From a virus (lineage: Duplodnaviria > Heunggongvirae > Uroviricota > Caudoviricetes): 11,155 nucleotides of DNA. Within the stretch, counting starts at the first letter, position 1; each line of letters opens with the position of its first letter. The stretch is taken from the IMG/VR virus record IMGVR_UViG_2529292887_000008; one strand, 5' to 3'. The notes below the pieces were generated by a model that was not told the origin of the DNA, ran no database searches, and worked only from the letters and a program-made list of their open reading frames with translations. A program made the translations under genes and the position numbers. Positions 1-3,552 of the stretch are shown piece after piece.

Positions 1-1230
1 ATGAGCAGAGCACTTAACAAACTGAGCGATACACAGCTGAGGAAAATCAACGGCACACCCGCCCAAAAAACAGCCTTTCTTAATGACGGTGGAAACCTGA
101 GCGTCAGGCATTCAACCAGTGGCCTTTTAACCTGGTATTTCACTTACAGGGCCGGAACGGGAAGGGGGGCACCACCGGAACGCATTAAGCTGGGAAATTA
201 TCCTGATCTGAGCCTGAAATCAGCCAGGGAAAAAGCCGCCCAGTGTCGCGCATGGCTGGCAGAGGGGAAAAATCCACGTCATGAAATGAATTACACCGTA
301 CAGGAAGCGTTAAAGCCGGTAACGGTTGGCGATGCGCTCACCTACTGGCTTGAGTCGTACGCAAAGGAAAACCGTGTGGATTATGACCCACTGAAAAAGC
401 GGCTAAATAATCACGTAATACAGCACATTGGCCCTATGCCGCTGGATAAATGCGAGCTACGGCACTGGCTGGCCTGTTTTGATCGGGTGGCAAAGAAAGC
501 CCCTGTTTCCGCCGGGTTCCTGCTACAGACATGCAAGCAGGCGCTTAAGTTCTGCAGGAAGCGGCGCTATGCAATCAGCAACGTTCTTGATGATATGAGT
601 GTGGCGGACGTTGGGAAAAAACCGGATATAAGTGAGCGTGTCTTAAGTAACAAAGAACTTGGCGAATTATTGCAGGCACTGGACAAAAAAATATTTTCCC
701 CTTACTACGTCGCACTAATCCGCCTCCTGATTGTTTTCGGATGCCGGACAGTAGAACTGAGGTTATCGGAGATCGGCGAGTGGGATTTTACCGAAATGCT
801 CTGGACCGTTCCGAAGGAGCACAGCAAAACGAAGGTAGCCATATTCCGGCCCATACCGGAAGCGATACTGCCGTTCGTCACGCAGCTGGTGGAGCAGAAC
901 AGGCACACGGGCTTATTGCTGGGGGAAGTGAAACAGGAAACCAGCGTATCGCAGTACGGCAGATTGGTGCACAGGAGGCTTAAACACCCTCACTGGTCAC
1001 TGCATGACATCCGGCGCACCTTTACAACCATGCTGAACGATTTAGGCGTTGATCCTCACGTCGTGGAGCAGCTTACAGGCCACCAGATGCCAGGAATGCA
1101 ACGCGTGTACAACCATTCCCGCTATATTGATGCGAAACGCAATGCGCTTGATATGTGGGTGGAGCGGTTGGAGATACTGGCGGGAACACATGAAAACGTA
1201 ACCACGCTACCAGTAACCAGAATAAAATAA
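1..1230 (+). CDS. int: Tyrosine site-specific integrase, P4-type (409 aa)
   Basis: N-terminal P4-Int-like arm-binding region (LSDTQLRK...LNDGGNLSVRHS...TWYFTYR...IKLGNYPDLSLKSAREKA) and C-terminal catalytic motifs (LHDIRRTFTT...GHQ...VYNHSRY). ORF begins at window position 1. Confidence 0.9.
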   Translation: MSRALNKLSDTQLRKINGTPAQKTAFLNDGGNLSVRHSTSGLLTWYFTYRAGTGRGAPPERIKLGNYPDLSLKSAREKAAQCRAWLAEGKNPRHEMNYTVQEALKPVTVGDALTYWLESYAKENRVDYDPLKKRLNNHVIQHIGPMPLDKCELRHWLACFDRVAKKAPVSAGFLLQTCKQALKFCRKRRYAISNVLDDMSVADVGKKPDISERVLSNKELGELLQALDKKIFSPYYVALIRLLIVFGCRTVELRLSEIGEWDFTEMLWTVPKEHSKTKVAIFRPIPEAILPFVTQLVEQNRHTGLLLGEVKQETSVSQYGRLVHRRLKHPHWSLHDIRRTFTTMLNDLGVDPHVVEQLTGHQMPGMQRVYNHSRYIDAKRNALDMWVERLEILAGTHENVTTLPVTRIK

Positions 1231-1604: not shown

Positions 1605-1793
1605 GTGTTAAGCACTGATCGGTTTATACGTGAAAAAGAATGCGAAAAGCTAACAGGCCTTAGCCGCTCATGCCGCTACCGCCTGGAAAAGGCCGGACAA
1701 TTCCCATCACGTCGTAAACTTGGTGGGCGTTCTGTTGGCTGGTCTTTATCTGAGGTTTTGGCCTGGAAGGATAGCTGCAAGGCAGTTCACTAA
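1605..1793 (+). CDS. alpA: AlpA-family (Phage_AlpA) DNA-binding transcriptional regulator, 62 aa, GTG start
   Basis: Motifs LTGLSRSCRYRLEKAGQFP...RKLGGRSVGWSLSEVLAWK match the AlpA helix-turn-helix family; RBS AAAGGGGG about 8 nt upstream of GTG at 1605; position immediately after int as in Gram-negative PICIs. Confidence 0.8.
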   Translation: MLSTDRFIREKECEKLTGLSRSCRYRLEKAGQFPSRRKLGGRSVGWSLSEVLAWKDSCKAVH

Positions 1794-1933
1794 AAAGACT
1801 GGCGGCACACAGTCGCCACACATCCACTAATACAGAGATATAACTATGAAGATTGAATATGCGCCCGAACGTGGGCGGGGATTCGTTCGCCCTGGTGAAA
1901 CTGAAAAACAACAAAATTGGGGTTTTTCAGGCA

Positions 1934-1962
1934 TAAAAAAAGCGGCCCCGATATGGAGCCGC
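1934..1962 (-). terminator. Intrinsic terminator for minus-strand module 2
   Basis: On the minus strand, stem GGCGGC...GCCGC (1942-1962) followed by a 7-nt T-run (complement of A-run 1934-1940), downstream of the CDS ending at 2037. Confidence 0.5.
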
Positions 1963-2036
1963 CTTTCTGAACAATTAACCTGCTGCGCCTTATGTGTATG
2001 TGATCCCAAACATAAGCACGGGAATGATAGCCGCTA

Positions 2037-2240
2037 TCAGGCTGGTGGGCAATTACCTTGCTTGTTGGGGCCGTATTGTGCTGCCATTTTCATCCGTTCA
2101 GAACGTGAATATTTTTTTAGAAACTCATCAAGGACAAAAGCGCATGGAGCGAATCTTTCTGATTCATGCTCGAGCGCCATATTTTCGTGCTCTCTGTTCG
2201 TTTTTTGCGATGGTGTATTGGTTGATTCTTTATTGGTCAT
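2037..2240 (-). CDS. Small hypothetical protein (67 aa), paralogue of 2698-2925
   Basis: Shares N-terminus MTN(K/N) and motif ERFAPCAFVLDEFLKKYSRS / EKFALEDFVDKYPRR and a C-terminal PP(A/G) with the 75-aa protein at 2698-2925; preceded by the same conserved ~45-bp leader. Confidence 0.5.
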   Translation of the reverse strand: MTNKESTNTPSQKTNREHENMALEHESERFAPCAFVLDEFLKKYSRSERMKMAAQYGPNKQGNCPPA

Positions 2241-2246
2241 TGTGTG

Positions 2247-2294
2247 TACCTGTAAAGCAATGCGCCGGAGTTCCTCACGCCACGGCGCTGATGT
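2247..2294 (-). promoter_or_regulatory. Conserved ~45-bp intergenic element (copy 2) between RHH gene and small-protein gene
   Basis: CCTGTAAAGCAATGCGCCGgAGttCCTCACgCCACGGCGCTGAT nearly identical to 2931-2980; contains inverted repeat GCGCCG...CGGCGC (6-bp stem, 15-nt loop) followed on the transcribed strand by AUUGCUUU. Confidence 0.45.
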
Positions 2295-2297
2295 TTT

Positions 2298-2477
2298 TTA
2301 TTCTTTGGGTTCAATACCGCGTTGCTGTAATTCTTTTCGGATTATTCGTTTTATCCAAGCAGCTAAAGAGTCATCACCGTCTTGTTGTTGTGCTTTTTCC
2401 ATCTTTTCCCGTAAGTCAGGATCTAAACGGAACTGGAAAGGAGGATTACCACGCCTTTCATTCTTGTGTGTTGACAC
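2298..2477 (-). CDS. Ribbon-helix-helix (Arc/CopG-like) DNA-binding protein, 59 aa, putative GTG start; absent from the ORF track
   Basis: Manual minus-strand translation: VSTHKNERRGNPPFQFRLDPDLREKMEKAQQQDGDDSLAAWIKRIIRKELQQRGIEPKE; predicted beta-strand FQFRLD plus two helices parallels the RHH protein at 2983-3162. In-frame ATG at 2402 would remove the beta-strand, so GTG 2477 is preferred. Confidence 0.45.
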   Translation of the reverse strand: MSTHKNERRGNPPFQFRLDPDLREKMEKAQQQDGDDSLAAWIKRIIRKELQQRGIEPKE

Positions 2478-2498
2478 GTCAATTACACCCCATATAAT
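2471..2498 (+). promoter_or_regulatory. Near-consensus sigma70 promoter (TTGACA - 16 bp - TATAAT), plus strand
   Basis: -35 TTGACA at 2471-2476 and -10 TATAAT at 2493-2498; overlaps the putative start of the minus-strand RHH gene. Confidence 0.45.
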
Positions 2499-2542
2499 GT
2501 GTTTATGTGTATATACACATTACACACAACTAGCACAAAAAA

Positions 2543-2578
2543 CAACGCCCCGCAGTGATGGGAACACATACGGGGCGT
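2543..2578 (-). terminator. Hairpin with downstream U-tract on minus strand (putative terminator between modules); also 5' part of repeated leader element copy A
   Basis: Stem ACGCCCCG (2543-2550) / CGGGGCGT (2571-2578); on the minus strand followed by TGTTTTTTGTGC. Confidence 0.4.
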
Positions 2579-2665
2579 CTAACCAAACCATTAATTGAGG
2601 TAACGATTATGGTTATAAAAGAGCATAGCTTACTCTTTATACACACACAAACGCCCCGGAAACGG

Positions 2666-2688
2666 AATAATCCGTTTCATAGTTCGGT
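2666..2688. terminator. Perfect 8-bp hairpin GAAACGGA-ATAA-TCCGTTTC just past the stop of the 2698-2925 gene
   Basis: Stem-loop read directly from sequence, 10 nt beyond the minus-strand CDS end; the flanks are T-rich on the plus strand and GU-rich on the minus strand. Confidence 0.4.
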
Positions 2689-2697
2689 TTTGTGCAC

Positions 2698-2925
2698 TCA
2701 TCCTGGCGGTCGGTTTTTGCCGGATTTAAGCCGCCGTGGGTATTTATCGACAAAATCTTCAAGGGCAAATTTTTCTGGTGGCACTAAGCGCGGCGCTGGT
2801 GGTGGTATTTTTGTTCTGGTTAGTTCTTCCTCAAGTCTGGCGCAGGCTTCTGACTGCCTTTGCCGGATGATTTCATCATCTTGCGTTTGCGAGTCTTGTA
2901 TTGGTGATAGTGTGTTGTTGGTCAT
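2698..2925 (-). CDS. Small hypothetical protein (75 aa), paralogue of 2037-2240
   Basis: MTNNTLSP...EKFALEDFVDKYPRRLKSGKNRPPG; shares motifs and the upstream conserved leader with the 67-aa paralogue. Confidence 0.5.
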   Translation of the reverse strand: MTNNTLSPIQDSQTQDDEIIRQRQSEACARLEEELTRTKIPPPAPRLVPPEKFALEDFVDKYPRRLKSGKNRPPG

Positions 2926-2930
2926 GATAC

Positions 2931-2980
2931 TGCCCTGTAAAGCAATGCGCCGTAGTACCTCACACCACGGCGCTGATAGT
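2931..2980 (-). promoter_or_regulatory. Conserved ~45-bp intergenic element (copy 1) between RHH gene and small-protein gene
   Basis: CCTGTAAAGCAATGCGCCGtAGtaCCTCACaCCACGGCGCTGAT; differs from copy 2 only at loop positions of the GCGCCG/CGGCGC hairpin. Confidence 0.45.
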
Positions 2981-2982
2981 GA

Positions 2983-3162
2983 TTATTCTGATTCTTTGGC
3001 CTTGCGACGCTGGCGGTATTCAACTTCCCGCTTTAATGCAGCTGTAACAAACTGCCCTGTACTTTCGCCGGGCATTTTTACCGCCTCAACATTGTTCATA
3101 ACTTCATGTGGAACCCTTGCCGCAACTGTTTGTGATTTTGCGTTTACTGCTTTTGTCGCCAT
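2983..3162 (-). CDS. Ribbon-helix-helix (Arc/CopG/MetJ-like) DNA-binding protein, 59 aa from ATG 3162 (ORF track starts at GTG 3171)
   Basis: MATKAVNAKSQTVAARVPHEVMNNVEAVKMPGESTGQFVTAALKREVEYRQRRKAKESE: beta-strand TVAARV, helix A, G-x-S/T turn, helix B; SD GAGGGG 8 nt upstream of ATG 3162. Confidence 0.6.
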   Translation of the reverse strand: MATKAVNAKSQTVAARVPHEVMNNVEAVKMPGESTGQFVTAALKREVEYRQRRKAKESE

Positions 3163-3212: not shown

Positions 3213-3288
3213 GTGTTCAACACTTGACGTGTTTAACACCTCGATTTAAATTGGTGTTCAACACCTTATTTAGGCAAGGTGTTGAAAC
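3213..3288. promoter_or_regulatory. Operator array (4 copies of palindromic GTGTT-N-AACAC) overlapping a plus-strand promoter
   Basis: GTGTTCAACAC 3213-3223, GTGTTTAACAC 3229-3239, GTGTTCAACAC 3254-3264, GTGTTGAAAC 3279-3288; candidate -35 TTGACG at 3224-3229 and -10 TAAATT 3247-3252 between the divergent RHH gene and the replication operon. Confidence 0.5.
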
Positions 3289-3354
3289 GACGAAACCCCG
3301 CACTGTAGGAGCAGTAACGGGGCTTCTAACCAACAACGTAAACGAGGAGCCGTT

Positions 3355-3552
3355 ATGGTTGCTGTAAATCATATACCACACCTTGTACACACACAAACTG
3401 CCTTTGTGTGGCGTTTTCTGGCACTGAGTGCCGGAGAATCTCAAATCATCCACGTAACCGCCTGGACGGAACGCGAAGCGCGTAGCCGTTGCCCGTCCGG
3501 TTGTGTTGCTGTATTTGCCGCCCGTATTCGTCAGGGGGTATGCCGTGCTTAA
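3355..3552 (+). CDS. Hypothetical protein (65 aa), first ORF of rightward operon
   Basis: Strong SD GAGGAG 5 nt upstream of ATG 3355; the first ~45 nt belong to a repeated leader element (see findings), so coding status is uncertain. Confidence 0.35.
   Translation: MVAVNHIPHLVHTQTAFVWRFLALSAGESQIIHVTAWTEREARSRCPSGCVAVFAARIRQGVCRA

Follow-up and report, generated by a model that had tools for sequence, protein, structure and literature searches.

A conserved terminator-like RNA hairpin at the junction between ribbon-helix-helix regulator genes and their downstream genes in Escherichia phage satellites

Short structured or conserved sequences between two genes are known from several systems. 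Intra-operon attenuators and stabiliser hairpins are exemplified by the rplL-rpoB attenuator and by the stem-loop after the major pilin gene in the pap and fim operons, the immI region of phage P22 contains the arc-ant intercistronic region with the sar antisense RNA, the repetitive extragenic palindromic sequences and bacterial interspersed mosaic elements (REP/BIME) are extragenic palindromes of E. coli, and lambdoid phages carry conserved boundary or linker sequences between exchangeable modules. Here we describe a 44-nt element from a stretch of viral DNA of 11,155 nt (IMG/VR virus record IMGVR_UViG_2529292887_000008, hereafter the window), where it occurs twice on the minus strand, each time between a gene for a small regulator of the ribbon-helix-helix (RHH) type and a small gene behind it, referred to as the partner gene.

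The element has something in common with each of these systems. Like the rplL-rpoB, pap and fim hairpins it is GC-rich, lies directly after the first cistron, has a downstream cistron that is reached via read-through only, and would be expected to give an excess of the upstream product; unlike them it has a weaker U-tract, its sequence is conserved across unrelated flanks, and its 9-nt spacing to the stop codon is fixed. In the P22 arc-ant region, likewise, a gene for a small RHH repressor of the Arc type is followed by a short intercistronic stretch with a regulatory role and by a second gene needing limitation, but here the promoter scan gave none in antisense, the hairpin is better in the sense orientation, the partner is unrelated to Ant and there is no DNA match in phage records. 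With REP/BIME it shares the form of a short, GC-rich, imperfect palindrome between co-transcribed genes, with many copies in the pangenome and the potential to protect upstream mRNA, but its sequence is a different one and it is found in one context only (after satellite RHH genes), in 1-7 copies per genome. As with the lambdoid linkers, a short conserved patch is flanked by highly diverged alleles in many combinations, although the element is also a structured, strand-biased RNA hairpin with fixed distances to stop and start. An intercistronic terminator-like hairpin which doubles as a module joint is a familiar kind of element, while this element itself is undescribed.

The motif ATCAGCGCCGTGGNGTGAGGNACTNCGGCGCATTGCTTTACAGG (minus-strand sense) has exactly two matches in the window, against 0.00 expected from shuffles (Table 1). 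A first-pass annotation of the window had placed the two copies at 2247-2294 and 2931-2980, within 2-3 nt of these matches, and had correctly read the minus-strand order as hairpin, AUUGCUUUACAGG and the start codon of the partner, the last two being 8 nt apart. It had counted four substitutions between the copies and assigned them to the loop; there are three (2268/2953, 2272/2957 and 2279/2964), all indeed between the GCGCCG and CGGCGC arms, but these are in the upper stem, and conservation is higher in the true apical loop, UGAGG, than in that upper stem. Its claim that the element is far better conserved than the neighbouring genes holds, as RHH1 and RHH2 give no BLASTP alignment and partners 1 and 2 are 23% identical (E = 0.038); a weaker similarity of 75 nt at 80% (2230-2304 vs 2915-2989) runs from the last RHH codons to the MTN start of both partners. 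When folded in the minus-strand sense, as the first-pass annotation had proposed, both copies form the GCGCCG/CGGCGC stem. In copy 2 five pairs are added above it to give 11 bp with a 5-nt loop, and the 70-nt segment reaches -24.3 kcal/mol (z = -3.0), with the 27-nt hairpin itself at -17.8 kcal/mol in sense vs -12.4 kcal/mol in antisense. The stem of copy 1 is limited to 6 bp, as three upper-stem pairs are broken by its differences (-14.2 kcal/mol, z = -0.5).

The position of the element relative to its neighbours is almost invariant. Counted to the first base of the stem, the distance from the stop codon of an open reading frame (ORF) of at least 45 codons, which is of the RHH type, is exactly 9 nt in 235 of 237 copies, and on this ground a dispersed palindrome of the REP/BIME kind was rejected. 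On the other side, 209 of 237 copies have an ATG at a distance of exactly 21 nt from the end of the stem, with no indels across the 63-nt interval, and the weak Shine-Dalgarno sequence of the partner (CAGG) is inside the conserved tail. The upstream ORFs belong to at least 15 RHH classes with unrelated bodies, while the last 8-10 codons are common to classes and are of two types (..RRKAKESE-stop and ..RGIEPKG/E-stop). The gene after the element usually belongs to the partner family, but in some loci it is a small lipoprotein-like ORF and in others a membrane-protein gene ~300 nt further on; conversely, each of the 212 partner-family ORFs in the fetched loci is preceded by the element. We also used a sample of viral contigs picked by their neighbouring Icd-like protein and hence blind to the element (the Icd-anchored sample), in which the element was present on the divergent strand in 63 of 74 loci. 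In this sample an RHH gene with the element always had a co-directional ORF behind it (50/50), whereas of ten RHH genes without the element four had such an ORF (three of which look spurious) and six had none (p ~4e-6, hand-calculated hypergeometric on 50/50 vs 4/10), so that the element belongs to the junction of RHH and following gene rather than to RHH alone. A promoter scan found no promoter-like site between RHH and partner, and transcription of the partner must therefore read through the hairpin.

Outside the window, a 65-nt query located the element in 1,672 of 5,426 complete E. coli genomes (~31%), at 2,728 places and with 1-7 copies per carrying genome, and the features annotated under these matches are YlcI/YnfO, Icd-like or hypothetical island genes. 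The first-pass claim of conservation is borne out in that the element recurs beyond the two copies, beside many unrelated RHH and partner alleles. Among 72,556 plasmid records it was found in Escherichia only (seven E. coli and one E. albertii), and there was no DNA match in 50,697 phage records. One of the plasmid matches is in a 10.8-kb E. coli 'plasmid' (NZ_CP148328.1, 10,790 bp) with the element below a YlcI/YnfO gene; its size is that of a whole island, and it may be a satellite that was excised as a circle and then assembled as a plasmid. A covariance model (CM) based on 31 distinct variants detected both copies in the window and one in a Shigella locus, but no element in 17 loci with RHH orthologues of other genera or of E. 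ruysiae; the counts from pattern scans of IMG/VR cover the matches listed, which are mostly canonical copies. A search of the whole window against Rfam 15 (cmscan, E <= 10) gave no match over either copy, and the element, the RHH genes and the partner genes are not mentioned in the papers searched on phage-inducible chromosomal islands (PICIs); literal sequence searches of papers found nothing relevant. The element is real, restricted to Escherichia satellites, and not described in Rfam or the papers searched.

Within the element, the Icd-anchored sample shows the lowest nucleotide diversity in the lower stem (0.040), followed by loop (0.093), tail (0.15) and upper stem (0.232), compared with 0.42 for the bases just 5' of the core, 0.45 for the 8-nt 3' spacer, 0.32 for the partner 5' region and 0.60 for the RHH body, and at the edges of the element the drop from ~0.42-0.45 to 0.04 takes place within a few bases. 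In the partner motif that is conserved best, diversity by codon position follows the pattern of genuine coding sequence (0.107, 0.064 and 0.258), and the lower stem is well below the 0.258 of its third positions; the element is more conserved than nearby synonymous sites and under constraint. The element is read on the strand of the RHH mRNA: standard pairs fill 88.3% of the pair cells of the 31 variants in the RHH-sense orientation vs 74.8% in antisense, 27 of 31 variants form the more stable hairpin in sense (mean minimum free energy (MFE) -13.7 vs -10.2 kcal/mol), and the G8·U20 wobble is retained in 25 of 31. Replacements by G·U are seen at pairs 2, 3, 5, 6, 7 and 9, those in the lower stem being U·G (2), G·U (3), U·G (5) and G·U (6), and one lineage is truly compensated, with pairs 1 and 2 changed from G-C and C-G to U-A (UUGCCG...CGGUAA). 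The covariation analysis that the first-pass annotation had called for gave a mixed outcome. Paired cells (88.3%) exceed those of shuffles (85.3%; 0/500 reach the observed value) and of slid controls (22-56%), and seven cells are changed on both sides, at pairs 1, 2, 10 and 11 (reached by 1/500 shuffles); the number of pairs changed on both sides, four, was reached by 44/500 shuffles, and these double changes are carried by about three lineages only. A count over 54 substitution events in all six frames found no frame enriched for synonymous or third-position changes (10-18 synonymous of ~52 events vs ~25% expected), and common variants (L006 and L009 types) contain an in-frame TGA or TAA.

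The element is also a place of exchange. There are 40 combinations of 16 RHH classes (one of which is an empty-key artefact) with 11 downstream classes, and seven of eight possible allele combinations are present at core positions 10, 17 and 21, as expected from patchy heteroduplex repair across the element. That the element is the joint where RHH cassettes and downstream genes recombine is largely shown by these data: no other well-conserved patch separates the hypervariable RHH cassettes from the variable genes behind them, and recombination here explains the tandem mismatched pair of modules in the window and helps to keep the element uniform. The two modules pair different RHH and partner classes, and module 1 holds a truncated Icd-like leader and start (~2547-2685), as would be expected had a cassette been inserted by recombination at conserved blocks. 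A single recent gene-conversion tract, named by the first-pass annotation as a possible explanation without selection, does not account for the conservation, although recombination at the element does add to its uniformity. In loci without element and partner the RHH tail joins directly to CCCACCAGC..., which elsewhere is post-partner sequence, and this points to deletion or insertion between repeated KEQE-stop/CCACCAGC ends. Element and partner are present or absent between direct repeats when loci L247 and L249 are compared with L225, L243 and L195; RHH and partner both end in ..KEQE-stop followed by C(C)A(T/C)CACCAGC, and RHH genes without the element continue with CCCACCAGCAAGCC.... Chi (GCTGGTGG) occurs nine times in the window vs 0.45 expected from shuffles (plus strand 885, 2041, 2795, 5496, 6827 and 8524; minus strand 4382, 5235 and 7161), with two sites near the 3' ends of partner genes, and its complement CCACCAGC is found beside module ends and beside some element variants in related loci.

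On the transcribed strand the element has the GC-rich stem-loop of an intrinsic terminator, with a stem of 6-11 bp on a GCGCCG/CGGCGC base, followed by AUUGCUUU in 99 copies (5 U of 8) or AUUGCUAU in 128 copies (4 U of 8), with 2-3 U in rare tails. The minus-strand terminators which end the units of the window (1969 to 1933 and 2578 to 2535) have U6-U7 runs. Orthologues of the RHH genes, 53-85% identical to RHH2, are present in Salmonella, Pectobacterium, Serratia, Klebsiella, Proteus, Xenorhabdus and further Enterobacteriaceae, and those outside Escherichia share the arrangement int-alpA / RHH / divergent primase. In loci whose following gene is convergent, hairpins of unrelated sequence stand behind the RHH stop codon, many of them textbook intrinsic terminators (AACCCTCTTAAAGAGGGTTGTTTC, AAAGGCAACGTTCGCAGCGTTGCCTTTTTC, AAGGGCGGCCCCGGTCGCCCTTTTC), and in a Klebsiella island the next ORF directly abuts the RHH stop with no intergenic gap and no hairpin. 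The element resembles the terminators after RHH orthologues of other Enterobacterales (loci L160-L169 and L250-L256) in its architecture, its distance from the RHH stop (~10-60 nt in these loci) and its ability to form a hairpin, whereas those terminators are unrelated in sequence, many have long U-runs and mostly face convergent genes, and the element has a degenerate U-tract and a co-directional gene.

The reading we favour, with a rough probability of 0.45, is that the element is a decayed, leaky terminator or a 3'-end-protecting hairpin, which would uncouple RHH from partner and would also serve as a homology patch for reassortment. Lying on the minus-strand RHH-partner mRNA as a non-coding stem-loop, it would be a weakened intrinsic terminator, in which a GC-rich hairpin is combined with a poor U-tract. 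Some polymerases would halt at the hairpin, or the transcript would be trimmed back to it, and either route would leave a short, hairpin-protected RHH message; the remaining polymerases would continue into the partner and end at the strong U7 terminator, with the net result that more RHH than partner is made from one promoter. We infer termination or stabilisation, and the ratio of RHH to partner expression, from position, architecture and analogy. The case for attenuation is indirect: orthologues without a downstream gene carry canonical terminators, and the Escherichia element has a weak U-tract and always a gene behind it.

Several observations weigh against this reading. The U-tract is nearly absent in rare variants (CAAUCAUA, ACAGGGUU), and with so poor a U-tract efficient intrinsic termination is unlikely and may be nil. 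The upper stem is disrupted in copy 1 and in many variants, so that the strength of the hairpin is not tightly selected, and its covariation comes from about three lineages. The lower stem and the apical loop are kept at the level of sequence, and G-C/C-G swaps are very few, which exceeds what a purely structural terminator needs; the conservation of lower stem, loop and AUUGCU beyond that need may reflect recognition by a factor or homogenisation by recombination. Finally, most of the 31 variants come from pattern-selected loci, and the apparent conservation of the specified bases is inflated accordingly.

Homogenisation could in principle be the whole explanation, with the 44 nt kept alike by homologous recombination or gene conversion (concerted evolution) and having no RNA function; we regard this as unlikely, though to be taken seriously. 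The extensive reassortment of RHH and downstream classes, the patchy mosaics at core positions 10, 17 and 21, a lower stem conserved at the level of sequence rather than structure, and the Chi or Chi-like CCACCAGC that immediately precedes some variants and also follows module ends would all fit, and recombination between KEQE-stop/CCACCAGC ends would explain the presence or absence of element and partner. The initial conservation of the patch would nevertheless still need a cause, the diversity edge is shorter and sharper than expected of conversion tracts, the rare changes in the lower stem are G·U or compensatory with the sense strand pairing better, and most copies have no indels over 63 nt. 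Recognition would make the element a sequence-specific riboregulatory hairpin, of which the 5' arm, the purine-rich, Shine-Dalgarno-like UGAGG loop and the AUUGCU tail are read by a trans factor (an RNA-binding protein of host or helper phage, a small RNA or the ribosome) that controls partner translation, mRNA cleavage or read-through. Conservation is higher in the loop and in the AUCA and AUUGCU flanks than in the upper stem, loop variants remain G-rich (UAAGG, UGGGG, CGGUG), the distances to stop codon and Shine-Dalgarno sequence are fixed, and the junction GC/AUU would fit the preference of RNase E (RN/WUU). We nevertheless find this somewhat less probable than homogenisation alone, as no candidate interacting sequence or protein was identified, loop variants do exist, GGA (CsrA-type) motifs are not conserved in loop or Shine-Dalgarno sequence, there is no Rfam family match, and concerted evolution could equally give the conservation. 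Dual GGA sites of the CsrA type, boxA/boxB (nut-like) sites and IHF and CRP half-sites, judged by eye, are not conserved among variants. A bolder version, to which we give still less weight, would have the hairpin as a dedicated riboregulatory switch of satellites and a portable joint, where a host or helper-phage factor reads the 5' arm, the Shine-Dalgarno-like loop and the AUUGCU tail and thereby decides whether or not the partner, for example an antagonist or cofactor of RHH, is made.

A gene order like that of arc-ant, the match of RHH1 to the PHROG family 'Arc-like repressor' and the UGAUGUUUUUUAUUC that follows copy 1 on the plus strand would suit a terminator of a short, sar-like plus-strand antisense RNA, starting in the 5' end of the partner, covering its ribosome-binding site and ending at the hairpin. 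This is improbable in view of the lack of a plus-strand promoter-like site upstream of either copy, the unconserved partner 5' region, a plus-strand hairpin that is weaker in 27 of 31 variants, and a plus-strand U-run that begins 5-6 nt past the stem and is absent in KESE-type copies such as copy 2. A double-stranded DNA site, with the inverted repeat GCGCCG-N15-CGGCGC bound by a conserved island or host protein such as AlpA, integrase or IHF, is more improbable still: both arms are conserved at the sequence level, and the conserved ATCA flank is loosely like an IHF half-site, but changes of the G·U type and a strand asymmetry in pairing make no sense for duplex DNA, the interior is asymmetric, and the position is between co-transcribed genes rather than at a promoter or att site. 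We give hardly any credence to a coding function, either as an RHH-partner fusion by stop read-through or as a +1 ORF ending at the AUGA over the partner start. In both window copies and in most variants, frame 0 contains no stop codon through the element and is in register with the partner AUG, and the +1 frame is open through the element with the UGA of AUGAC as its stop, but neither reading survived the six-frame count and the in-frame stop codons of common variants, and there is no conserved slippery site.

Table 1. Location of the element copies and neighbouring features in the window
Feature	Position	Strand	Basis
Integrase	1-1230	+	ORF/family calls
AlpA	1605-1793	+	PF05930, E = 5e-18
Predicted strong intrinsic terminator ending the RHH1-partner 1 unit, GGCGGCUCC-AUAUC-GGGGCCGC + U7	1933-1969	-	-26.4 kcal/mol, z = -4.6
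Partner 1, 67 aa, motif HESERFAPCAFVLDEFLKKY	2037-2240	-	ORF; AUG 21 nt past hairpin
Element copy 1, 44-nt core: AUCA + 27-nt hairpin + AUUGCUUUACAGG	2249-2292	-	Exact motif match; CM 72.1 bits, E = 7e-20
Copy 1 hairpin, 6-bp lower stem GCGCCG/CGGCGC, upper stem mostly disrupted	2262-2288	-	Fold; MFE -12.2 kcal/mol, both strands
RHH1, Arc-like/YlcI-YnfO-like small regulator, C-terminal ..QQRGIEPKE	2298-2477	-	PHROG 228 'Arc-like repressor', E = 1.5e-6; stop 9 nt before hairpin
Terminator-like hairpin + GUUGUUUUUUG, 3' of partner 2	2535-2578	-	-25.2 (minus) vs -18.4 (plus) kcal/mol
Partner 2, 75 aa, motif PPEKFALEDFVDKYPRR	2698-2925	-	ORF; aligns with partner family; AUG 21 nt past hairpin
Element copy 2, 44-nt core	2934-2977	-	Exact motif match; CM 74.9 bits, E = 8e-21; terminator-like in consensus scan
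Copy 2 hairpin, 11-bp stem (two G·U pairs), loop UGAGG	2947-2973	-	Fold
RHH2, YlcI/YnfO family, tail ..RRKAKESE	2983-3162	-	NF041551, E = 2e-16; RefSeq (L001); stop 9 nt before hairpin
Icd-like gene, first of operon with DUF4222 and D5-type primase downstream	3355-3552	+	NF033153

The window is a phage-satellite (PICI/P4-like) island of Escherichia, in which two tandem two-gene modules on the minus strand lie between alpA and the Icd-like operon. At an E. coli locus with 99.6% DNA identity (L001), RefSeq annotates a 'YlcI/YnfO family protein' and hypothetical proteins. The ORF list opens RHH2 at GTG 3171, and the match of RHH1 to NF041551 (E = 5e-4) is under the cut-off. Foldseek against PDB and phmmer against PDB sequences gave nothing significant for the RHH fold, and the RHH label therefore rests on family annotation (NF041551 for RHH2, PHROG 'Arc-like repressor' for RHH1), with which the AlphaFold model of RHH2 (short segment, helix, helix; pLDDT 81) appears compatible in its predicted secondary structure. 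The partner family comprises 15 clusters among 5.8 billion proteins, from E. coli only and each named 'hypothetical protein', and the two partners have no significant match in Pfam, NCBIfam, PADLOC or PHROG; a structure model is helical but of low confidence (pLDDT 66). The N-terminus of the family is variable and often arginine-rich (ARKRRRRK in many alleles), with one conserved helix (ERFAPCAFALExFLKEY). A type II toxin-antitoxin operon with RHH as antitoxin is not supported, as these searches placed neither partner in a known toxin family.

A perfect sigma-70 consensus promoter (TTGACA-16-TATAAT, 2471-2498, plus strand) is aimed at the truncated Icd-like leader and ORF remnant (2610-2685, plus strand) and would transcribe antisense into partner 2 and RHH2; together with the remnant it suggests that module 1 was inserted as a second cassette. 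At 3213-3286 and 2495-2522 palindromes resembling operators overlap with the divergent promoters, with three to four copies of GTGTTCAACAC for module 2 and the different TAATGTGTTTAT/ATATACACATTA for module 1, and each RHH class seems to have its own predicted operator set, consistent with immunity-like specificity cassettes. A second conserved hairpin is located between the Icd-like start codon and the RHH promoter (2547-2578 and 3295-3325, plus ~2622-2652 and ~3368-3398). Its minus-strand fold is the more stable one (-25 vs -17/-18 kcal/mol), it always has a U-rich tail 3' on that strand, and it varies in its interior by lineage while still pairing; the terminator-like hairpin after partner 2 is the same DNA as the plus-strand leader hairpin of the truncated Icd-like remnant, and is likewise conserved with a varying interior in related loci. 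A minus-strand block GTTTGTGTGTGTA...TATGAT/TATGCT is kept in both modules, and with this hairpin it could represent a candidate antisense RNA of ~80 nt over the Icd-like ribosome-binding site. In several IMG/VR islands the Icd-like N-terminus is duplicated with an insert of ~360 nt in between, reading through as ...NIGEKNRLIATSKNGYDSRAPHKTG...GGYLNHTEEAANMAT....

In the 2018 description of Gram-negative phage-inducible islands the global repressor was unclear, and AlpA was described as an activator (PMC6092414). With the silencing of these islands unresolved, the divergent RHH gene with its operator-like palindromes is an obvious candidate for the repressor, and the hairpin is the only invariant feature of the RHH operon across at least 15 specificity classes. 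Should the element be a leaky terminator only, this would be ordinary biology; if it is true that the hairpin sets the ratio of RHH to partner, it offers a simple handle on partner function, and a riboregulatory switch, if true, would link helper-phage infection to island derepression, with satellites swapping immunity-like specificities via the joint. The element is in addition a ready annotation marker for RHH-partner modules, and it illustrates cleanly, in a natural setting, a small structured RNA which doubles as a joint for cassette exchange.

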